Source: a virus
Reading direction: 5' to 3' (one strand)
DNA length: 64,000 nt
Virus record (IMG/VR): IMGVR_UViG_3300020596_000020
Coordinates: 17,645 to 81,644 of that record
Each line of letters begins with the position of its first letter. Position 1 is the stretch's first letter. The position numbers and the translations under genes were made by a program. This document shows, piece by piece, positions 17,518 through 58,801 of the stretch. A model generated the notes under the pieces. That model made no database searches. It saw nothing but the letters and a program-made list of their open reading frames with translations, and was not told the DNA's origin.

Positions 17518-17795
17518 GTGTCGTCGCTCTCTAACATGTCATAAAGTAGGTCGCTGTCGACCTGTGACAGAGCGCCGCGCTCGATCCGTTCGTGAAGCTT
17601 CCCGTTGTATTTGAGTCTCGCGAGCTCGTCAAGGATAGAGATAGCGCGATCATCGCCTTCTGCGACTAGTGCGACGAAGCCACCCAGCGTGTCCTGCAAC
17701 GTCAGTTGTCGCTCGAACGTCGCCACCTTGGTTTTAACGTACGATGATTGTGGTAGAAGCACATGGATGTTCCGCTTCGCTCCGAACTTCTTCAA
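17514..17795 (-). CDS. hypothetical protein
   Basis: 93-aa coupled ORF. Confidence 0.6.
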   Translation of the reverse strand: MKKFGAKRNIHVLLPQSSYVKTKVATFERQLTLQDTLGGFVALVAEGDDRAISILDELARLKYNGKLHERIERGALSQVDSDLLYDMLESDDT

Positions 17796-28453: not shown

Positions 28454-28660
28454 TCACGGGCGAACGATCTCCCACCCGAAATTTTCCCACTCGCTCAGGT
28501 CCCAGTCAAACTTTGAGATGGACCCGGCCGGCCGACGATCGTCTCCCGCGTCCTCGATGACTAGCCCCCACTGGCCGTAGTCATCGATGATGACGAACGA
28601 CGCTCGTGTAAACGCGAACACGAGGTCGGTGTAGAGGATAACCGTGCCCTTGAGACTCAC
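28454..28660 (-). CDS. small hypothetical protein
   Basis: LKGTVILY...GWEIVRP; coupled to the dnaE-C stop. Confidence 0.5.
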   Translation of the reverse strand: MSLKGTVILYTDLVFAFTRASFVIIDDYGQWGLVIEDAGDDRRPAGSISKFDWDLSEWENFGWEIVRP

Positions 28661-30804
28661 AGATCGGTTCCGTCAACCTCTCGCATGTCACGGAGCGAGC
28701 AACTGAAACCGAGTTTGTCTTTCTTCACTCTCACGACGTAACAAGCGTACTTCTTGAGCTCGCTAATCTGATGCTCGGCGGTGCTCCACACGAACATGCG
28801 ATGGATGGCGCCGTCCGAGCCGTAGCACGCTAATTGGAAGAAGTTGTTGCCTGTGCGCGCGGTCTTTTTCTTACCGTCAGACAGTACCATCCAATACGTT
28901 CCGTACTTCGCAGTGGTGCATTCCTCGAGAGGCGGGATGTCGTGCGCCTTGAGCTGCATGCGTAAATCATCGTCGAGCAACGCATCGGGGTCGATAGAGC
29001 CATAGAGCTCGATCTGATTCTTCACGATCTCATCACGCGTCCAGTCAGTCAACGTCTTCGACTCCTCGATGAGCTCGGCGAGTCGGCGAGTGTGATACTC
29101 GGGGTCCTTTTTCAAGCGTTTCTTGAGTTCGGCCTGACCATCGACAATGACATGATGTAGCTGCTTGTAGTTCTCGAACGTTCTCCCCGGTCCGACGATT
29201 TGCATAGAGTCGAACGCCCCGAGTGTCACAAGTGCCCCGAGCGATTTCGAATTAAACTTACTGTGTCGCCACGTTCCGTTCTCATCCCAGAGCAGGTCCT
29301 CCAACTTACGATACGGTCGTTTCACCAGCAGCTCGTTCACAGCCGAGGTTCCGACGCCGGTGACCGTGAGGAAAGACGGGTAGAAGGTTCGGTTGTCAGA
29401 CGCGATCTCCCATTCGCGATTCGAGCGGTTGATGTCAACCTTTGCGACGTCGTAACCCATCGCCTTGATCTCGGCCAGCGCACGTCGACGCGAATCAGGA
29501 TCACCGAGCATGGATTCGACGTACGAGCAGAGCCATTCCGGCTCGTAGTAAGTCATCAACCAGGCACACTGATACGAGATATATCCGTACGAGTACGAGT
29601 GGGCGCGGTTGAAACCGTAGGCGGCGAACGCCTGTAGGTCGTCGTAGAGCAACTCCGCCTTTGCGCGTGGATAGCCTTTGGCCTCGGCGCCGTCCACGAA
29701 CTTCTCGTGCAGCTCGTCGGTCAGTGTCTTCCCCTTGGATGCGTCCTTGGTAGTGCGTTTCAGGATGGCCTTGCGCAGCTTGTCTGCCTCGACCTCGCTG
29801 AAGCCTGAGAGCTTCATTGAAATCTCCATGATCTGTTCTTGATAGATCACGAACCCCATCGTATCTTCAAGACATTCGTTGACCGCGGCGTGACCGTAGT
29901 CCTTCTTCACACCATCACGACGTGCTTTGATGTAGAGCTTGTCGACGTCGGCAGCTAACGGTCCGGGTCGGTAGATCGCGGTCGCGGCTGCCAGGTCGTG
30001 AACGCTACGAGGGTCAAGGTCAGTGATGAATCGCTGCGTGCTTGGATTCGTGAACTGAAAGATGCCGGCAAAGCGAGACTCACGGAAGACATGGTTGAAC
30101 ACGTCGCTCAGGTTCGGGTCGATGCGACTCGGCGTCAGATTATCGTCGTACCACTCCTTCACCTGCGCAAAGGTTGGGTTTCGGATCCCGCTGTGACGCT
30201 TCAGGATACGACGCACGCACCGCTCAATGATACGTAACGTGTCGAGGCCGAGGAGGTCGTACTTGACTAAGCCGTACGGGCTGAGACCCTTCATCGCCAT
30301 GCCTTCACTCCAAGGCGTCTGTAGGTCTCCGCGGACGCTGATGAGTGGCATGATGCCGTCAGGGTCGTCGTGAACGATGATGCCGCCGGCATGCTTGCCG
30401 ACAGCCTTCGTCTGCCGACCAAGGATCTTCACGTCGTTGTCGATCGCCGGGTACTTCTTCATCAGAGCGCGGAAAGCCGGCGAGTGCTCCATGCAGCCCT
30501 CGTACGTCAGCTGAACAGAACCCTTGGTGTCGTCGCCGGTATGAAGATGCGGCTTCACCTCCTGATCGAGATTCTTGGTGGCGTCGTTGACCTCGTTGAA
30601 CTCGAGCCCGTGCAGCTTGGACACGTCCTTCACGAGCGACTTCATCTGCAGACCGTTGAAGTTGCTGATGGGGACGATCGTCTTCTCGCCGAACTCCTTC
30701 TTTAGCAGGTCGATGACTTTGTCGCGATCAGAGACGTCGCAGTTGTGTGTCCCAATCCAACGATCTTCTTTCATAAAAGAAGAAATTCGATAACTTTTAC
30801 CCAC
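28657..30804 (-). CDS. dnaE: DNA polymerase III alpha, C-terminal half, preceded by a 21-aa C-intein
   Basis: MGKSYRISSFMKEDRWIGTHN|CDVSDRDKV; KHAGG, KYDLLGL, GIFQF, YRPGPL, IYQEQIM, YGFNRAHS; AGGAG SD before the GTG. Confidence 0.93.
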   Translation of the reverse strand: MGKSYRISSFMKEDRWIGTHNCDVSDRDKVIDLLKKEFGEKTIVPISNFNGLQMKSLVKDVSKLHGLEFNEVNDATKNLDQEVKPHLHTGDDTKGSVQLTYEGCMEHSPAFRALMKKYPAIDNDVKILGRQTKAVGKHAGGIIVHDDPDGIMPLISVRGDLQTPWSEGMAMKGLSPYGLVKYDLLGLDTLRIIERCVRRILKRHSGIRNPTFAQVKEWYDDNLTPSRIDPNLSDVFNHVFRESRFAGIFQFTNPSTQRFITDLDPRSVHDLAAATAIYRPGPLAADVDKLYIKARRDGVKKDYGHAAVNECLEDTMGFVIYQEQIMEISMKLSGFSEVEADKLRKAILKRTTKDASKGKTLTDELHEKFVDGAEAKGYPRAKAELLYDDLQAFAAYGFNRAHSYSYGYISYQCAWLMTYYEPEWLCSYVESMLGDPDSRRRALAEIKAMGYDVAKVDINRSNREWEIASDNRTFYPSFLTVTGVGTSAVNELLVKRPYRKLEDLLWDENGTWRHSKFNSKSLGALVTLGAFDSMQIVGPGRTFENYKQLHHVIVDGQAELKKRLKKDPEYHTRRLAELIEESKTLTDWTRDEIVKNQIELYGSIDPDALLDDDLRMQLKAHDIPPLEECTTAKYGTYWMVLSDGKKKTARTGNNFFQLACYGSDGAIHRMFVWSTAEHQISELKKYACYVVRVKKDKLGFSCSLRDMREVDGTDL
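30742..30804 (-). mobile_element. split intein C-fragment (block G only)
   Basis: Ends in the THN intein terminus, followed by Cys+1 (codon 30739-30741). Confidence 0.85.
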
Positions 30805-31825
30805 GCTTAATCTCCTGTGACAGACGATCTATTTCGTGTTTGAAATTGACTTTTGTGGCTGCTTCCCAACATATCAACACGCGACAACCAAGTTTACTCT
30901 CTATACGACGTACACGAGATTCGTTTTTAAGACGAATCTGTCCTGCTGTCATACCGGAATGAAGGAGTTTATCGGCAGTGTAGACGCTTGGATTTGCATG
31001 CCAATAGTCGCCATAATACTCAACTGCACAGTCTCGATCTGGAAGGTAAAGATCGAGACTGTAACACCAACCTTCTTCTCTATTTGAGACAAAGAACTGT
31101 CTATTCATCCAAGAATATGATTTCTCGTTCTCAAATTCCTTAAGAAGAGCGTAAATAAATTCTTCTTCTTTTGCTGACGAACCGGTCGTATGACTGTTAG
31201 GCCATTCAACGTACGGATTCACATTAGCAAACCAATTATTTTTCCCATGCGTTGAGAGCATGTTTGCTTTATGCAGATCGCGCACATTGCTAGACATCAT
31301 TGGGTACGAGACACCCAATCGTTGTTCACATGTAGCTTTGTATTTCGCTTGAATCAATGTTGACTGAAGTGGTCTATTGACACCATGACGATATCTCATA
31401 GTTGCTGTGAATTTATCTTGATATTCGTCAGTGCTATAAAAGGCTGATTTTAGACAAGATTCACAAAGAAATGTTCTCTTATGCTGACGACGTGCTGTGT
31501 TCCCCTCCATTACGTGGAGTTTTCCGCATGTTGGACACTTGAAATTGAATGCCAAAGAACCTAAAGCATACTTTTTCGCATTCTCATCGACGAAATGACA
31601 TTTTTCGTCATCAAGCACGAATTCCACGTTGTTGATCAGTAACCCGGTAGTCATCACACGCGTAGAAACTGCGTGCTTCACATTTTCGTAGCTGAACCAT
31701 GGTGTTTCGAACAGTCCGCTAAACTGTTTTCTGAGCAGATTTATTTCGCGCGAGGATTCGTCTTTGAGTTGATACCCGTGTTTCGCAGCTAACACTGACG
31801 AGAAGTTACTTCGATACTTCATCAA
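30797..31825 (-). mobile_element. free-standing Vsr/DUF559-like homing endonuclease between the dnaE halves
   Basis: CPTCG..CESC Zn finger, RHGV/RLGV repeats, LDLYLP..AVEYYGDYWH..ICWE; clearly more AT-rich than the flanks. Confidence 0.82.
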
Positions 31826-32279
31826 CGTCTAAATAGTCATTGACTTTGATAATCACGTCACCCAAACGTGGATCACTTTCATCCACGTAGACATCGAACG
31901 GAATGACACGAAAAGTGTGAGAATGTTCGACCTCAATGTCCACTAACGTTCGTATACCATGCAAAATTATGATACCAACCACGACGCAATTCTCAGATCC
32001 CTTGAGAGAGTGCCCGATTAACAGTTGTTTGGCACGAACAACTGTGTTATCATCAAGTACCATCTTGTGCTCGGCGTTACACACAATCGTTCCATAGCAT
32101 GAATCTTGTTTCACTAGTAGTTCGTAGATTATCTCATCTTTTCTAGCAGATCTTGCGTTCACGGTCAAGACTTTACGATGAGCGCCTTCGATATCGATCA
32201 CAACGTCGTTTTTTTCAACTGTCTCGATGCGCTTATAACTTCCATCTGTCATCATGATCAAATGACGAGCATCTAAACA
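31806..32279 (-). mobile_element. split intein N-fragment (157 aa; blocks A, B and F plus an acidic tail)
   Basis: CLDARHLIMMTDGSYKRIE (A), IVCNAEHKM (B), LVDIEVEHSHTF (F), then a stop with no terminal HN. Confidence 0.85.
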
Positions 32280-33755
32280 ATCGATGTCTGGAACGTCAGT
32301 GCGAGCCAACGACATGAAGCGGGCGAAGATGAGATTGTTAGAAACAGGATCGACGTCTGTGATGCCGAGCACGAAGTTGACGAGGCTGCCGGCTCCGGAC
32401 CCGCGACCCGGACCGACGAGACAATCCTTCTTGGCAACATCAAGGATCGCCTTCAGAGTGAGGAAGTAAATGGAGTTGTCGAGCTTCTTGATGACGGACA
32501 GCTCGTTCTTGAGTCGCGCGACGTAGGCCGGTAGATGGGCCAACCGCTTCGCGCGCATGCCCTCCTTGCAACTCTCCACGAGCGTCTGGAACGGCGTCAT
32601 GTCGGGGCGAACGCCGAAGCTAGGAAGCTTCACGCTCGTGTCGATGGTCACGTCGCCGATGACGTCGTGCGCGACGTGCCAGGCGTTCTCGATGGACTCG
32701 GCTACGACCGCGTCGTCGTAGAACGCGTGACCCTCCTTGTACAGGTTGTACGCATCCCACATCTGATCCGCGTTCTTTGGATAGAGCTCGCACTTGAGCT
32801 GCTTCACGTCAGCCGGGATGGAGTCCGGACCGAGCTCCGAACCGCCGCGCCCCATGCGGCCAAGCAGCTTGTACACCTCGCGTGCGCGCCACAGATCGGG
32901 GCTACAGTAGTGCGAGTCAGCCGTAGCGACCAACTTGACGCCGTTCGACTTTGCGAACTCAAGCAGCACACGGTTGGTGAGGTGTTGAGGCGCTAAGCGG
33001 TTGAACTGGATCTCAGCGAACACGTTGTCGCGCCCGACGGCGTCCGTGAGTCTGTCGAACTCGTTGCCGACGGCTCGCATAACGGCGTCGCGCTTCCCAG
33101 GTTCGTCCAGGATATCTGGGGTCAACTCGTCGAACGACTTACCGGCGAACTGAGAGTACGTCGCCCAAGATGGCACGCCGGCAACGCAGGCCGTAGACAC
33201 TACGACGTCCTCGCCATGTTCCTTCAGCATTGCCGAGTCGATGCGCGGGAAGCGGTAATAACCCTCGCGCGCACTGCGAGACACCAAGCGAAAGATGTTC
33301 TCGAGGCCCTTCTGCGACTTAGGAAGCAGCACGAGGTGGTGGCGACGCTCGACCGGGTCGAGGTATTTGCCGTTACGCTTGGACGCGTCCTCGTCTTCCA
33401 CGGCGACGCCCGTGTCATCTTCGTCATTGTCCGGACGCTTGACTTTGGCAGCCTCGCGCTCTTCCTTGCGCACTTGGTCACGCGTGACTTTCGCTGCGGC
33501 CCAGTCCTTCAGACTCGGGATGTAGTATGCTTCGACCCCGGGAATGAACTTCATGGGTCGACCGTTTTTATTCAACTCCTGTGTTTTTTGGTAGCATTCA
33601 GGGAACGAGTTCATGTTTCCATGATTCGTCATAGCCATCGAGCTCATGCCATTGTCAGCAGCGAACTGGATGTGATCTCCTCCATCACCGAAGCCGTCGT
33701 AGATGCTTTTCCCATCGTGTGCGTGCAAGTTCGCGAACTTCTTCGGATTTACCAT
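31806..33755 (-). CDS. dnaE: DNA polymerase III alpha, N-terminal half (PHP domain to PDID) fused to N-intein
   Basis: NLHAHDGKSIYDG, TNHGNM, GVEAY, HLVLL, ATADSHY, GPGRGSGAGSLV, PDID|CLD. Confidence 0.93.
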   Translation of the reverse strand: MVNPKKFANLHAHDGKSIYDGFGDGGDHIQFAADNGMSSMAMTNHGNMNSFPECYQKTQELNKNGRPMKFIPGVEAYYIPSLKDWAAAKVTRDQVRKEEREAAKVKRPDNDEDDTGVAVEDEDASKRNGKYLDPVERRHHLVLLPKSQKGLENIFRLVSRSAREGYYRFPRIDSAMLKEHGEDVVVSTACVAGVPSWATYSQFAGKSFDELTPDILDEPGKRDAVMRAVGNEFDRLTDAVGRDNVFAEIQFNRLAPQHLTNRVLLEFAKSNGVKLVATADSHYCSPDLWRAREVYKLLGRMGRGGSELGPDSIPADVKQLKCELYPKNADQMWDAYNLYKEGHAFYDDAVVAESIENAWHVAHDVIGDVTIDTSVKLPSFGVRPDMTPFQTLVESCKEGMRAKRLAHLPAYVARLKNELSVIKKLDNSIYFLTLKAILDVAKKDCLVGPGRGSGAGSLVNFVLGITDVDPVSNNLIFARFMSLARTDVPDIDCLDARHLIMMTDGSYKRIETVEKNDVVIDIEGAHRKVLTVNARSARKDEIIYELLVKQDSCYGTIVCNAEHKMVLDDNTVVRAKQLLIGHSLKGSENCVVVGIIILHGIRTLVDIEVEHSHTFRVIPFDVYVDESDPRLGDVIIKVNDYLDVDEVSK

Positions 33756-33795
33756 ACACTTCTATTGTCTGTCACTCGACCTCACACCCGAACAC

Positions 33796-33869
33796 TGGAG
33801 CCACCGACCGGACTTGAACCGGTATAACGAAGATACAAACTTCGGGTCCTGCCATTAAACGACAGTGGC
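33796..33869 (-). tRNA. tRNA-Thr(UGU)
   Basis: GCCACTG/CGGTGGC acceptor, CGAAG-TTTGTAT-CTTCG anticodon arm, ACCGG-TTCAAGT-CCGGT T arm, encoded CCA. Confidence 0.92.
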
Positions 33870-53416: not shown

Positions 53417-54880
53417 CTAGCCGACCTTCTTGAGATTGAGTCCGTCATTGTTGAACTTGGCAAAACGATCTTTCAACTTCTGTCTGACGTCCTGATCAGC
53501 AGCAGCTTGACATTCGTCTGGTGTGGTGGTTTCGCCACAGATGACGAGCTTGCTTCGCGCTGTGTCAATCATGACTGGGAAGACGAGACCGTCGAGACCG
53601 TTTCGGTTCTTGGCAACGTAGAGACGACCAAGACCACTTACCTTCTCACCAGCGCGCCGTGAGAGTGTGACGATGAAGTCGGCGATGAAGGCTTTCGCGT
53701 AAGCTTCGGACATGTTACTCATGTCAACAACCTCTGCGGTAGATCCTTCCTTGTTACTTTGCGACGCGGTCCACAGTGCCACATTGCGTTCGGCAGCGAA
53801 GGCTCGAAGCTCCTCATAGATGAGCTTGAGCTCCATGCGCGGGAGGTCGTACTGTCGCGACGAACGCATGATATCTGCGTAATCGACACAGATGACATCG
53901 GGCACGAAACCCTTGAGAGCAAGCTTCTCAACATGAGCGCGAAGTGTCTGAACGGTTGGCTCATTCGTGGGGAAATACTTGATCTTGAGCTTGCCAAGCT
54001 TGTGCTCGGAGTAGAATTTCGCGACGTCATCCTTACAGGTCATGATGTCGTTTGAATCGATGTCAGTGAAGTTCGAGTCGAAGCGGATGCCGACCTTCGC
54101 CTCTGAGAGCTCGAATGAGTAGTACAAGACGTTGAAGCCCTGACGCATCGCGTTGGCGCCGATGTACGCGAGGAAGTGGCTCTTGCCAACGCCGGTCGGC
54201 GCGATCATGACGTGGAGCTCACCGCGACCCGATCCACCGTTGAGGATCTTCAGCGTGTCCAACTCCGGCAGACCAGTGGCGATCGTGGCGCGCTTCAGGC
54301 CGACGTAACGTGCCTCCACGTCCTCGAACAGATCGTGTCCAAGCGACGATGCGGTACCAGCAGAGACAGCCCTCTTGATGGTGTCAACGATGGCTTCGTA
54401 GTTCTCGGTCTCGATGAGATCAACCGTTTTCTCGAGTGCACGCTTAAGAGATTGGCGACGACAGAAGTCGAGCGCCTTCTCCTTGACAAGCGGAAGGTCG
54501 CCCATGTCAGGAGCCTCTCGAAGACCCTTCAGATACCCGACGACCTGCTCACGCAGGGCGAGGTCGTTGCCCTGCTTCAGCTCGTCCTTGACGATGGTGA
54601 CGAGCAACTGGAGCGACGGATACGTCTTGTACTTCCGCGCGTACGCGAGGTACCGGTCGGAGAGGAAGTGAAGATACTTGAGATCGAAGTACCCAGGCTC
54701 CAACACCTCTGAGACTTGCTCTGCCCACACCGGATCACACAGGAGAGCCTGCACGACCTTCTTCTGAAAATGCTGCCCGTACTGTCCGAACGTCACCGCG
54801 CTCGGCGCGCTATCGGCCGTTATCTCGCTCAATTGTGTCTCCTTCAGGCTCGTTTGGTCAGCGGCATAAACGCGCTGCAA
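53417..54880 (-). CDS. dnaB: replicative DnaB/T4 gp41-like helicase
   Basis: APTGVGKS, SFEL, VDYAD, TASQSN, AKNRNG. Confidence 0.9.
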   Translation of the reverse strand: MQRVYAADQTSLKETQLSEITADSAPSAVTFGQYGQHFQKKVVQALLCDPVWAEQVSEVLEPGYFDLKYLHFLSDRYLAYARKYKTYPSLQLLVTIVKDELKQGNDLALREQVVGYLKGLREAPDMGDLPLVKEKALDFCRRQSLKRALEKTVDLIETENYEAIVDTIKRAVSAGTASSLGHDLFEDVEARYVGLKRATIATGLPELDTLKILNGGSGRGELHVMIAPTGVGKSHFLAYIGANAMRQGFNVLYYSFELSEAKVGIRFDSNFTDIDSNDIMTCKDDVAKFYSEHKLGKLKIKYFPTNEPTVQTLRAHVEKLALKGFVPDVICVDYADIMRSSRQYDLPRMELKLIYEELRAFAAERNVALWTASQSNKEGSTAEVVDMSNMSEAYAKAFIADFIVTLSRRAGEKVSGLGRLYVAKNRNGLDGLVFPVMIDTARSKLVICGETTTPDECQAAADQDVRQKLKDRFAKFNNDGLNLKKVG

Positions 54881-55812
54881 AAGTCGTGCGGGTTCTCAAT
54901 CGTCCGCACTCCGACCTCGATGAGGTCGCGCATGAACGATAGCATGTCAATCTTGGGAGAATGCTCTGCAAGAATGGTATCGGTGCGAGCTGCCTGATCG
55001 TGCGTAAGCGTTGAACCTCCCAGGTAAACGAGGCGCCAGTTGGTCCGGATCAACTGCTCGTTCTGGACAACGTTCATCATCACCTTGGCCTCGTTGCGCC
55101 GCACATTCGCGTACTCGATGACCTGGTCGATGGTGATTTCCGCATCCGAGATGAGTAGAGGGATCCGTTGCACAAGTGTCTTGAAGCCGAGCCCTTTGAC
55201 GCCGGGAATGTTGTCGGACTTGTCACCACACAACGCCTTCGCCAGGGCGAAGTTGTGCGCCTGGATCCCGAAGAACTCCTTCTTAACGTCCTCCATCGTG
55301 TGAAGACGTTTCGACTGCGGCGAGTAGATGCTCGTCTTCTCGTCGAGCAGCTGATAGAAGTCCTTGTCGTTCGACAGAATAATCTTCTTCCGATCCTTGA
55401 ACTGGTTGCGGTGCAGATGAGCGATAACGTCGTCGCCTTCACAGTCCGACACGTAGACCTGACAGACGGGGAAGCGCTTGAGCATTCGCGCGAGGATCGC
55501 CATCTGCCAGACGCGATTGTCTTCGGTATCCGGGATGTCATCCTCGTAGAAGCGGTTGAGACGCTCAGGCTTGCGGTTCGCCTTGTACTCAGAGTAGATG
55601 GCACGTCGCTTCGTCGATCCGCCACCCTCCCACGCGATGATCACTTGAGCTGGAGAAAGATCGTAAACGAGACGACGAAGGGTTTTGAGAGAACCGATCG
55701 CGCCTCCGATTTGCTGACCGTTCGTGGTCATGTCCGGATTTACGACGTAGTGCCTTGTGAAGAGATTGGCCATGTCGACCAGTAAAATTGGAAGAGTTTC
55801 TTGTACTTGCAT
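54844..55812 (-). CDS. 5'-3' exonuclease / flap endonuclease (second copy)
   Basis: LLVDMANL, EYKANR, EGDDVIA, SNDKDFYQL, GDKSDNIPGVKGLG. Confidence 0.93.
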   Translation of the reverse strand: MQVQETLPILLVDMANLFTRHYVVNPDMTTNGQQIGGAIGSLKTLRRLVYDLSPAQVIIAWEGGGSTKRRAIYSEYKANRKPERLNRFYEDDIPDTEDNRVWQMAILARMLKRFPVCQVYVSDCEGDDVIAHLHRNQFKDRKKIILSNDKDFYQLLDEKTSIYSPQSKRLHTMEDVKKEFFGIQAHNFALAKALCGDKSDNIPGVKGLGFKTLVQRIPLLISDAEITIDQVIEYANVRRNEAKVMMNVVQNEQLIRTNWRLVYLGGSTLTHDQAARTDTILAEHSPKIDMLSFMRDLIEVGVRTIENPHDFCSAFMPLTKRA

Positions 55813-55835
55813 TTGTTAGTATCTACTTAGTCCTG

Positions 55836-56828
55836 ATGCGACACAAGAACTTCAGAGTCCTCGACCAATCGATCATCGACGCGATGTGCGCACGATATCG
55901 CACTGGCTTTAGTATAACTGACTTGGCAGCCGAGTTCTGTCTCGGTCGGAACAAGGTAATCAAAACATTGAAGGAGGCGCTCGGCATCGAGTACGCCGCA
56001 TGTGCGCGTCTGGCACGTGCTTCTGTCGGTCAGAAGGTGGCTCCCAAGCTTCGTGGTCGAAAGAATCCTCATACCGACGAATGGAACGCAAAAATCGCTG
56101 CCTCACACATCGGTAAAACACATTCCGAAGATACAAAAGCGCTTATCTCTCAGCGTGGCAAAGAACGCGAGCTCAACCCGGAGTGGCAAGCGCGGAAGAG
56201 CGAAATATACGCGAAGATCGTCGCGACGAAGCGCGCGAACGGTTACTTCGAGGAACACAGTAAGCGTCACTCGGAATGGATGATCGTGAACGCGCCGATG
56301 CGAGGCAAGAAGATGTCTGCCGAAACACGCGCGATAATGAGCGCTAGTAAACATGAGCTCATGGCCAAGGGTTGGAAACCTACTATGCCGGAGGTGACTC
56401 CGGAAACGCGTCGCGCATTCAGCGAAAATACCAAGCGAATGTGGCGAGAAGGTAAGTTCACTTACGGTGGCGGGGCGGTCATGCGCAGCAAGCTCGAGAA
56501 GCGAGTGTATGCCGACGTCCTCGCATGTCACCCCGACGCGACTCATTCATATCCTCTCGTCAGCAGTGATCGAACCTACTGCTACGACATCCACGTCCCG
56601 TCGCTCAACCTGCTCATCGAGGTGAACGGCGACTTCTGGCATTGCAACCCTCGCCTGATGTCGGATGAGGATTGGAAACAAGTTAGAGACGTGGATGTCG
56701 TTCGTTCGAAGGATGCAGACAAGGCTTGCGTAGCCATCGAGAGCGGTTACGTCTTTGTCACGCTGTGGGAGATGGATCTCGTGGGGATCAACGCGTCGAC
56801 TTTGCTACTCAGCGAGAGGCATCGCTAA
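55836..56828 (+). mobile_element. free-standing homing endonuclease (HTH/NUMOD3 + Vsr/DUF559-like nuclease)
   Basis: Start ATG 55836; GKTHSEDTK and GKKMSAETR NUMOD3 repeats; YDI..LLIEVNGDFWH..LWE. Confidence 0.8.
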
Positions 56829-56974: not shown

Positions 56975-57433
56975 TCATCGCCCTGTCGATCCGAAGCCGT
57001 CAGCACCGCGAGTGCTCGCTTCAATCTCATCACACTCCTCGACCTCAACGTACGACCACAGATGATTGAACGCGGCCGGGTAGATTACGATCTGCGCGAT
57101 CTTATCGCTAGCCTTGGCGACAAAGTCAGTGTCACTCGAGTTGAACAGGATGACGTGAAACACGCCACGATACGACGGGTCGATGATGCCGCCGTGACTG
57201 AAGATTCCTTTCAGAGCCATACTTGAGCGGTCTTCCATTTTGAGAAAGGTGGCGCCGAGACCAGACTCAGGCGACTTCGCGAGCATCAGGCCTGTGGAGA
57301 CCTTGACGGTCTTTCCGGCTGGGATCACGAAGTCGTCGATGCATCGGACGTCGAGACCAACGTCTCCCTTCCGTTGGGTCGGGAGTGTTGCGCGAGGATC
57401 AGCTTTTTTGAAGAACAGGCGAGTGAGGCTCAT
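56975..57433 (-). CDS. dut: dUTPase (trimeric)
   Basis: GLDV, RSS, GIIDPSYRG, KIAQ, RGADGFGSTG. Confidence 0.95.
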   Translation of the reverse strand: MSLTRLFFKKADPRATLPTQRKGDVGLDVRCIDDFVIPAGKTVKVSTGLMLAKSPESGLGATFLKMEDRSSMALKGIFSHGGIIDPSYRGVFHVILFNSSDTDFVAKASDKIAQIVIYPAAFNHLWSYVEVEECDEIEASTRGADGFGSTGR

Positions 57434-57447
57434 GCCCTTCTTTTAGC

Positions 57448-58668
57448 TCACTTGGGGGCGGGCTTGACCGTCTCGAGCTCAACGTATGCATTCTCATCGA
57501 CGTCTGTGTCGTACTGGTCAGTCTTCGCCTGCTCGGGCGTCTTCACGAGAGCCGCGTCGATGATGTCGGCGATGATCGTCTTGTACGTCGGATCGCGCAT
57601 GAGGTCGCCGAAGTCTGTCTTGTAAAACTTCTTCTCCGTAATGACTTCACCCGTCTTCGCGTCAACAACAGTGAGATCTTTCCACGAGCCGGTGCCGGAG
57701 ATCGACAGCAACTTGCCGTTCTTCTCGATCTTATTCTTGTCGCAGTACTCGCGTAGAACATCGAAGAGCTCCTCGTGTTCTACGATGCCCTTCCCGAAAT
57801 GGATCTGGAAGTGGATCTTGCGGAATGGCGCGGCAACCTTGTTTTTGACAACCGACGCGATGACGTTGATGCCGATGAGCTCGTCGTTCTTGTTTTTGAT
57901 GCGAGTGCCACCTGTGAGCGAGATGCGCGTCGAGGCATGAAACGGCAGAGACAAGCCTCCCGGGGTTGTCATCGGGTCGCCAAACATGACGCCGATCTTC
58001 GTACGGATCTGGTTGAGGCAAACGAGAGTGATGTTCTGGTTGCCGATGAGCTGTGTGATCTTGCGGAAGCCCTTGCTGAGCTGACGAGCCTGCAAGCCGA
58101 TGCTCTCTTGAGTGTACTCGGCTTCAAGCTCCGCCTTGGCGGGCGTGGCGGCGACAGAGTCCCAAATGATCACGACGGGCACGTCCTTGTTGGCAGTCTT
58201 CGTCTTGGTGATGATGGAGTCCATAACTTGGAACGTATCCTCGACACATCCGGTCTCGACGTAGATGAACCGTTTGGTAACGTCCACGCCAAGCGCACGC
58301 AGGTTCTCAGGGTTGACGGCGTTCTCAGTGTCGATATAAACGGCAATGCCACCCATACGCTGACAGGCTCGGCAAATCTGCGCCGCGATGTGAGACTTGC
58401 CAATGCTCGGCTGCCCGTAGATCTCAATGATGCGACCCTCGGGGAGGCCTCCGCCCTTCTTGTTGGCGACGGCGTAGTCAAGCTGAACGCTTCCGGTCGA
58501 CACCCAACGTTTGACGTGTGTCGGCGACAGGTCTGTCCCGAGGTTCCACGCCACACGGGTCTGATGCTCGCGATTCAGATCCTTGATGAGGTCCTGGACG
58601 AAGTCGTCGCCGAGACCTTTTTGCGCGGCCGGAGCTGCGTCTTCTGCCTTCTTCTTCGTTGTGCTCAT
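57448..58668 (-). CDS. recA: RecA/UvsX recombinase
   Basis: Start MSTTKK at 58668; STGSVQLD, GRIIEIYGQPSIGKS, IDTE, WDSVAA, NQIR, TPGG, KNKV. Confidence 0.95.
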   Translation of the reverse strand: MSTTKKKAEDAAPAAQKGLGDDFVQDLIKDLNREHQTRVAWNLGTDLSPTHVKRWVSTGSVQLDYAVANKKGGGLPEGRIIEIYGQPSIGKSHIAAQICRACQRMGGIAVYIDTENAVNPENLRALGVDVTKRFIYVETGCVEDTFQVMDSIITKTKTANKDVPVVIIWDSVAATPAKAELEAEYTQESIGLQARQLSKGFRKITQLIGNQNITLVCLNQIRTKIGVMFGDPMTTPGGLSLPFHASTRISLTGGTRIKNKNDELIGINVIASVVKNKVAAPFRKIHFQIHFGKGIVEHEELFDVLREYCDKNKIEKNGKLLSISGTGSWKDLTVVDAKTGEVITEKKFYKTDFGDLMRDPTYKTIIADIIDAALVKTPEQAKTDQYDTDVDENAYVELETVKPAPK

Positions 58669-58680
58669 CTTTCTCTTTCT

Positions 58681-58801
58681 TCGTGCGATGGGCAGGGATC
58701 GAACCCGCAACCGACCGGTTAAAAACCGGCTGCTCTTTCCTCACGCTCAGTATCGAGAACTAGTACTCTCGACCTCACGTCAAACTACGAGCTTCCACCG
58801 C
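58681..58801 (-). tRNA. tRNA-Lys(UUU)-like RNA with a 53-nt D-loop (insertion or intron)
   Basis: GCGGTGG/CCATCGC acceptor, GCTC/GAGC D stem, GCCGG-TTTTTAA-CCGGT anticodon arm, GCGGG-TTCGATC-CCTGC T arm; no encoded CCA. Confidence 0.75.

Follow-up and report, generated by a model that had tools for sequence, protein, structure and literature searches.

How could a phage obtain a working DnaE polymerase from a gene that is broken into separately translated pieces right behind a catalytic aspartate? The question is raised by a stretch of 64,000 nucleotides (the window, whose own numbering is used throughout) covering positions 17,645 to 81,644 of the IMG/VR virus record IMGVR_UViG_3300020596_000020, in which the dnaE gene is interrupted by the two pieces of an intein and by the gene of a free-standing endonuclease. 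The record is 81.6 kb long and its source samples are microbial-mat metagenomes; given a CheckV completeness of ~24% for a record of this size, the source phage is probably very large. A near DNA match is absent from the phage GenBank collection, in which the relatives are all below 60% identity. Here we describe the anatomy of the locus, the folds of the intein and the endonuclease, the borders of the cassette that carries the endonuclease gene, the family of relatives and the empty alleles. In our view dnaE was very probably fractured by a two-layer mobile element, consisting of a class-1 mini-intein and a later cassette, with trans-splicing rebuilding the polymerase.

Anatomy of the fractured dnaE

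The locus consists of three consecutive minus-strand open reading frames (ORFs) at 31806-33755, 30797-31825 and 28657-30804, and since their start coordinates leave remainders of 2, 1 and 0 modulo 3, each is read in a different frame. The first ORF (649 aa) carries a PHP domain and positions 2-105 of the Pfam profile DNA_pol3_alpha, and the last (715 aa, GTG start) carries positions 110-260 of the same profile, the finger domain and HHH_6. This division of the profile indicates that the polymerase is cut at a single point. In an alignment to the E. coli Pol III alpha chain 2hnh_A (residues 361-415), the cut falls directly after the second Asp of the PDFD motif. We take the Asp pair of this motif to be the catalytic Asp401 and Asp403, which were reportedly described by Pritchard and McHenry in 1999.

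The upstream product begins with a DnaE N-extein of 492 aa (32280-33755, minus strand, as for all features of the locus; G+C content (GC) 0.586), which comprises PHP and the first part of the palm and ends in PDID. Translation then continues with CLDARHL... for 157 further residues, the N-intein, up to a stop. The downstream product opens with MGKSYRISSFMKEDRWIGTHN, followed by CDVSDRD; its first 21 aa (30742-30804) are the C-intein, and the remainder is the DnaE C-extein (28657-30741; 694 aa and a stop; GC 0.562), with the +1 Cys at the head of CDVSDRD. A Shine-Dalgarno sequence for this half, AGGAG, lies at 30812-30816 within the 3' end of the endonuclease gene, with the GTG start 7 nt downstream. 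Joined at the splice junctions, the exteins amount to 492 + 694 = 1186 aa, compared with 1185-1188 aa in intein-less relatives. An earlier note on this DNA had described the three ORFs with their coordinates and frames, a 492-aa DnaE-N running from PDID into CLD and a 157-aa N-intein with blocks A, B and F, the AGGAG before DnaE-C and a spliced size of ~1186 aa, and all of these hold.

The exteins have a GC of 0.56-0.59, whereas the intein core and the endonuclease cassette have only 0.42; intein and cassette alike appear foreign to the host gene. The AT-richness of the endonuclease gene had been noticed before, and the intein itself is AT-rich too. Since the layout is repeated in other assemblies and in distant relatives, it is not due to chance.

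Fold of the intein and position of the split

The 157-aa N-intein was modelled by AlphaFold2 with a mean predicted local distance difference test (pLDDT) score of 89 and a predicted template modelling score (pTM) of 0.82, with pLDDT exceeding 90 over most of residues 1-130. Residues 1-127 of the model match more than 40 solved inteins in VIA-align (Z 14-17, root-mean-square deviation (rmsd) 1.5-2.4 Å), and the model shows the HINT horseshoe fold of a class-1 intein; Foldseek comparison with gp41-1 gave an E of 3.5e-6. The target ranges aligned were 1-120 of 128 in gp41-1, 1-131 in Npu DnaE and 1-153 in Ssp DnaE, in each case ending 6-8 residues short of the C-terminus. As these ranges end before the last strand, the N-piece corresponds to a HINT domain minus its last strand. 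The C-piece ends in WIGTHN, comparable to ILTHN, the C-terminal strand of the gp41-1 intein. The class-1 catalytic set is complete, comprising Cys1, His71 of block B, Asp114 of block F, THN and the +1 Cys.

The break is located in the loop preceding the last beta-strand, a position that the numbering of Sun, Yang and Liu, followed in PMC11766414 and PMC13014065, calls S11. The earlier note's split between blocks F and G, of S11 type, is thereby borne out, although the C-piece, at 21 aa here and 16-21 aa elsewhere in the family, is longer than the ~6 aa of a minimal S11 C-piece. The ancestral part of the N-intein (31875-32279; 135 aa, GC 0.422) was delimited from the translation, the AlphaFold2 model, the VIA-align matches and the invariant residues; it contains Cys1, His71, Asp114 and the PFDV strand and extends to ...VDES. 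It is followed by a cassette-encoded C-terminal tail of 22 codons, DPRLGDVIIKVNDYLDVDEVSK, and a TAA stop (31806-31874), recognized from the sequence and from a tail motif that recurs in relatives and modelled with a pLDDT of 48-69. In the model, the PFDV strand (128-133) pairs with a strand of the tail (142-145) at a pLDDT of 66-87.

Curated profile hidden Markov models (HMMs) failed to recognize the intein at 30742-32279, with no match to TIGR01445, TIGR01443 or PF14890 and 31.2 bits for Hom_end_hint, just short of the cut-off of 32.1. The family is too diverged for standard intein models, which bears on its annotation and not on its fold. Single-sequence phmmer searches of the PDB with the N-intein and with the endonuclease gave nothing useful, and profiles were required: a profile of N-intein relatives matches gp41-1 at E 3.8e-10, and gp41-1 is the nearest solved relative of the intein. 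Routine annotation would label the ORFs over 30742-32279 as two DnaE fragments and a hypothetical protein.

Fractured dnaE genes with split inteins and Vsr-like endonucleases are already known; the new element is a natural split after block F with a short C-piece. Dassa et al. (2009; PMC2677866) described fractured genes in which split inteins are accompanied by free-standing endonucleases of the Vsr-like or GIY-YIG type; three GOS DnaE loci and gp41-1 are among them. Like those loci, the present one, and a distant relative termed L104, has two adjacent host-gene halves on the same strand, each with an intein piece, and an endonuclease ORF between them. Further shared traits are an endonuclease gene whose 3' end runs into the beginning of the downstream half, a Vsr-like type of endonuclease, phage-like environmental DNA as the source, and gp41-1 as the best solved match of the intein. 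In contrast, the pieces of Dassa et al. measure 88-105 aa (N) and 33-54 aa (C), with the canonical endonuclease site between blocks B and F, the exception being one odd split with a short N-piece and a long C-piece. Here the pieces measure 157 and 21 aa and the break follows block F, which is carried by the N-piece, whereas a canonical C-piece holds both blocks F and G. The comparison covers piece lengths and split positions within the intein.

The S11 position is known from engineered splits of Ssp DnaB, Ssp GyrB, Ssp DnaX and Ter DnaE-3 (Sun, Yang and Liu 2004; Lin et al. 2013, per PMC11766414), in which, as in the present intein, the loop ahead of the last beta-strand is broken, the N-piece is a near-complete HINT domain and the strand on the C-piece ends in His-Asn. 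These constructs were made in the laboratory, have 6-aa C-pieces and react slowly and with low affinity (PMC11766414), whereas the split described here is natural and occurs in ~44 diverged clusters, its C-piece having a leader of 15 aa and its N-piece an extension of 27 aa. The natural atypical splits AceL-TerL, GOS-TerL, VidaL and PolB16 (PMC13014065, PMC10189870) likewise use a non-canonical site, have one fragment accessible to peptide synthesis and come from phage or metagenome sources, but in those inteins it is the N-piece that is short (15-37 aa, S1 or S2), and here it is the C-piece. A 2025 review and a 2026 paper from an intein laboratory give natural atypical splits only at S1/S2 and S11 only as engineered (PMC11766414, PMC13014065), which agrees with the earlier view of a natural S11 split as unusual; full-text literature searches, with subscription-only papers outside their scope, found no natural S11-type split.

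The cassette, its endonuclease and the allele states

Logan contigs of four runs were compared over 28600-33800; no RNA run was among those listed. The sole whole-length contig, X1, is possibly the record's own source and was excluded from the independent support. A diverged strain in another mat sample, X3, provided separate contigs spanning 30761-31073, 31090-31917 and 31888-32567, and a contig of X6 spans 30655-31002; together they reproduce both ORF junctions and the N-splice junction. In X3, a 75-nt contig with a depth of 11.8 joins 30792 to 31875 and skips exactly 1082 bp (30793-31874), with 5 letters common to both sides of the joint. In the window, a 5-nt repeat, ACTTT on the plus strand, is found at 30793-30797 and at 31875-31879. 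The joined form, computed from the window, is in frame and reads ...HTFRVIPFDVYVDES-YRISSFMKEDRWIGTHN^CD (where ^ marks the splice junction), giving a contiguous 152-aa mini-intein with the junction residues ...PFDVYVDES-YRISSF...THN^C and, at the nucleotide level, ...GTGGATGAAAGT followed by TATCGAATT...

This in-frame deletion allele implies that the cassette was inserted into a contiguous mini-intein: an endonuclease cassette with its own stop, Shine-Dalgarno sequence and GTG moved into the loop that separates blocks F and G. The cassette (30793-31874; 1082 bp, GC 0.416, flanked by the ACTTT repeats) supplies the 22 codons of the N-intein tail, TAA, the endonuclease gene, the Shine-Dalgarno sequence and the first four codons of the C-intein (GTG GGT AAA AGT). 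The other 17 residues of the C-intein, YRISSFMKEDRWIGTHN, are ancestral and represent the old F-G loop and the block G strand. For the docking pair proposed in the earlier note, an acidic N-intein tail and a basic C-intein leader, the origin of the parts has to be adjusted: 22 of the 27 residues of the acidic tail after PFDV come from the cassette and not from the ancestral intein, and ancestry holds for 17 residues on the C-intein side but not for the first four.

The product of the cassette is a Vsr-like, EDxHD-type, free-standing homing endonuclease (30797-31822; 341 aa from the ATG at 31822, or 342 aa from the TTG with which the ORF begins). It matches PHROG 3339, 'homing endonuclease' (E 5e-11). 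Sequence similarity to solved EDxHD/Vsr members is weak, and a profile of five homologues matched only Vsr in the PDB (E 0.03), aligning the catalytic Asp, GxxWH and WE with D...GCFWH...VWE of Vsr. Residues D258, E269, G272, W275, H276, W320 and E321 are invariant in ten relatives, and the catalytic Asp, Glu and His that characterize the Vsr-like/EDxHD family (the region of Asp51 and His69 in Vsr) are present. The structure model is of moderate quality, with a mean pLDDT of 64 and values mostly of 65-93 in the C-domain. Its residues 216-342 match Vsr (1cw0, Z 9.4; 1vsr, Z 9.0, 109 aligned, rmsd 2.9) and the catalytic domain of I-Bth0305I (3r3p, Z 8.0, 96/98 residues), which rank above the other structure matches except for one mitoribosomal chain (Z 8.1). 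These comparisons of the model support a Vsr-like C-domain, as had been suspected from the letters alone. The N-terminal half, ahead of the nuclease domain, contains a zinc-ribbon-like CxxC...CxxC and DUF7487 (Pfam). With I-Bth0305I of the EDxHD family (Taylor et al. 2011, PMC3239194; PDB 3R3P) the protein shares a C-terminal nuclease of Vsr fold, the conserved D, E and WH, and a link to inteins or introns of phage replication genes; it differs in having the zinc-ribbon-like motif and DUF7487 in place of the NUMOD/HTH N-terminal region.

Relatives of the N-intein were found in 46 clusters at 50% identity in a search of 1.84 billion cluster representatives, and in ~44 of the 46 the protein ends 4-56 residues past PFDV, that is after block F, without a His-Asn end. 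Arg43, Gly63, His71, Asp114, Phe123 and Pro127 are invariant in 19 aligned relatives, and the tails show a recurring hydrophobic strand followed by a Y-x-x-D-x-D-like motif. On the other side of the break, short C-inteins are present in five further DnaE-C relatives (P0052/P0186, P0123, P0075, P0084 and, by gene call, P0050) and in L104; they are 16-21 aa long and end in (S/T)HN before C or S, with (C/S)D.SDRD thereafter. The C-intein of P0186/P0052, whose DnaE-C is 80% identical, is MGKDMRISSFRREARWVGTHN, with RISSF, RW and GTHN kept in P0186 and no internal Met; that of P0123 is MQLVTRHSFKEKNFWVGSHN, and those of P0075 and P0084 have 20 and 16 aa. In P0050 (97% identical) the gene was called from an internal ATG, giving MKEDRWIGTHN. 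Such a start, which would leave an 11-aa C-intein, is less likely than the GTG, because the Shine-Dalgarno sequence precedes the GTG, RISSF is kept in the Met-less P0186 and YRISSF is part of the contiguous allele.

The N-intein of L104 is only 27% identical, and the locus has the same layout of N-intein, homologous endonuclease and overlapping start of the C-half, with a C-intein of 20-21 aa and GGAG before TTG/ATG within the 3' end of the endonuclease gene. The notion that long N-intein tails ending in R-I-x-L replace the leader and allow shorter C-pieces was rejected, as L104 has both a long tail and a C-intein of this length. L104 (4105-10607 of IMGVR_UViG_3300020577_006291) has its dnaE in three pieces with two Vsr-like endonuclease cassettes; besides the post-block-F split at PDID there is a second, canonical split in the PHP/palm region, with a 40-aa C-piece containing blocks F and G.

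Three allele states exist in close relatives: intein-less, contiguous intein, and intein with cassette. The intein-less alleles (84% identity) read PDIDVDVSDRD, indicating that the +1 Cys replaces a Val. Contiguous mini-inteins are found in P0189 (1360 aa) and P0049 (622 aa), of which the former shares a 90% cluster with the split P0123. When P0189 is compared with P0190 plus P0123, the sole differences are the 33-aa tail and the MQLV leader of the split pair, and this comparison places the insertion, on independent evidence, where the X3 joint places it. The contiguous and the cassette-bearing states apparently occur within one community. A search of viral contigs with the N-intein yielded no confirmed locus; among the ~100 DnaE loci that scans with P0024 and P0009 brought up, none has the PDID^C intein, and a scan of viral contigs with P0186 returned only alleles without an intein at the PDID site. 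P0049 could not be traced in viral or metagenome contigs, nor P0186 in genome contigs.

Several further observations concern the wider family. Up to 3-4 inteins are packed within ~100 residues of the dnaE extein in P0005 (944 aa), P0049, P0008, P0022 and P0027, at the sites GPGRG^C, ...R^C...THN^S(D/G)xPDID and PDID^C; the second of these is just six residues upstream of the third and is split canonically in many relatives (P0077, P0078, P0081, P0100, P0143, P0147, P0156). In one lineage, that of P0087 (832 aa, 29 contigs), the gene call joins the C-terminal part of the endonuclease to the C-intein, …GVHEMIHSCLSTNKTITSHN^SD, and the nuclease motif is altered (YGDYRH vs YGDYWH), which suggests a decaying endonuclease with a lost stop. 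The P0193 endonuclease is 48% identical to that at 30797-31822 and, judging by equal lengths of their longest contigs, apparently lies on the same 8502-bp contig as P0052; here the cassette either diverged much faster than the host gene or was exchanged. Finally, a search of the record with the cassette endonuclease located a second free-standing Vsr-like endonuclease ORF (55788-56828, plus strand; 346 aa, ...IEVNGDFWHCNP...VTLWEMDL), which interrupts no gene. It is antisense between a 5'-3' exonuclease/FEN-like gene (54844-55812, minus strand) and a dUTPase-like gene (56975-57433, minus strand), with a recA-like gene (57448-58710, minus strand) adjoining; the dUTPase-like and recA-like labels are readings of the translation only.

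Trans-splicing, its alternatives and its implications

How would the broken gene work? In the mechanism we favor, a ~152-aa class-1 mini-intein is placed directly after the second catalytic Asp of the PDxD motif, and the 1082-bp cassette later entered the loop between the penultimate (block F) and the last (block G) strands. Two polypeptides would then be translated separately, DnaE-N with the 157-aa N-intein and the 21-aa C-intein with DnaE-C. Most likely, the WIGTHN strand of the C-intein inserts into the near-complete N-intein and completes the HINT fold, and docking may be aided by the loop-derived leader (YRISSF...) and perhaps by the acidic cassette-encoded tail. Class-1 splicing through Cys1, the block B His, the block F Asp, His-Asn and the +1 Cys would produce the 1186-aa polymerase, reading PDIDCD. 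The endonuclease most likely serves to spread the cassette into cassette-free copies of the intein.

The leader stems from the old F-G loop, with YRISSF here and TRHSF or (H/N)SC in others, and is conserved between the window and P0186. By our count, it is net basic in four of the five cases examined, L104 being the exception, while among the four pairs examined the N-intein tail is acidic without exception. A role of the tail as a clasp or placeholder is plausible. A bolder proposal is that this is the first natural S11-split intein family, splicing in trans efficiently, with a synthesisable C-piece of 17-21 aa that docks via its leader and a cassette-derived extension that acts as clasp or placeholder; we consider this proposal evenly balanced between right and wrong.

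Several points weigh against the mechanism outlined above. Block B reads CNAEH, with Asn where many inteins have Thr. The cassette-free form is known from one 75-nt contig in one sample, and for some of the ~44 clusters the end past block F may reflect the end of a contig and not a true stop. Since most engineered S11 splits react slowly and with low affinity (PMC11766414), splicing need not be efficient here, and as the record is only ~24% complete, a second polymerase may be encoded elsewhere in the genome. Trans-splicing, docking and the target of the endonuclease are, moreover, what we infer from the locus and its relatives.

The alternative that fares best, although improbable, is that the intein pieces splice no longer and either hold the polymerase halves together as a non-covalent clasp or belong to a dead gene in a phage with another polymerase. 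The weakness of engineered S11 splits (PMC11766414) would fit this, as would the fragmentary nature of the record. Three lines of evidence, however, argue for a working intein and not a relic. The catalytic residues (Cys1, His71, Asp114, His-Asn and the +1 Cys/Ser) are kept here and in relatives only 27-40% identical; the X3 variants are mostly synonymous, with eight of the first nine listed differences within the N-intein at third codon positions by our count; and without splicing, ~180 residues would remain in the active site, adjoining the catalytic aspartates right after the second of them. In addition, no family A or B polymerase scores above the cut-off in the 81.6-kb record.

It is considerably less likely that the 1082-bp insert is removed from RNA in the manner of a group I intron with an endonuclease gene, which would leave a contiguous intein and make trans-splicing unneeded. 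Vsr-like endonucleases do occur in group I introns, such as I-Bth0305I in recA (PMC3239194), and the borders of the insert restore the frame exactly. Yet no Rfam intron family matches, even at E up to 10, and the insert is almost entirely coding and supplies a stop, a Shine-Dalgarno sequence and a start, as it does in L104. The short form, moreover, comes from runs listed as DNA and is thus an allele and not a transcript, and folding of the 5' border has a z of -1.8 in the window and 0.0 in L104. Near this border, at 31820-31897 (minus strand), the PFDV codons (UCGAUGUCUA) and the endonuclease start region (UAGACGUUGA) form a 10-bp stem that resembles the start-sequestering hairpins of Dassa et al.; its overall z is the same -1.8, and it was dropped as a conserved feature in view of the L104 value.

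Least credible of all is that the stops and frame changes stem from errors in the assembly or sequencing of a gene whose intein is contiguous with an in-frame endonuclease domain, since, even though the window derives from a metagenome assembly whose sole whole-length contig may be its own source, the independent X3 and X6 contigs (30761-31073, 31090-31917 and 30655-31002) show the same structure and bridge both of the junctions at which the earlier note had allowed for such errors, the three frames come with a proper Shine-Dalgarno sequence and start, and the three-ORF layout recurs in L104 and, by protein ends, in dozens of clusters.

Trans-splicing at this locus would matter in practice and for the evolution of such elements. 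Short natural intein fragments are wanted for protein semisynthesis, and natural split inteins usually outperform engineered ones in splicing by a wide margin. The natural short fragments reported so far are all N-pieces of 15-37 aa (PMC13014065), and C-terminal labelling still relies on slow engineered S11 constructs (PMC11766414). A natural family that is related to the very fast gp41-1, has C-pieces of 16-21 aa and includes dozens of diverged members provides candidates for C-terminal labelling and for orthogonal pairs. As the family escapes standard intein HMMs, the annotation of comparable cases is probably incomplete. The locus also shows that homing-endonuclease genes can break inteins outside the canonical insertion site, and with three allele states in close relatives, the gene-breaking model of Dassa et al. 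becomes open to direct test. If the bolder proposal is true, a selfish cassette would have evolved to provide a stop, a start and an aid to docking by which the broken host gene remains functional.

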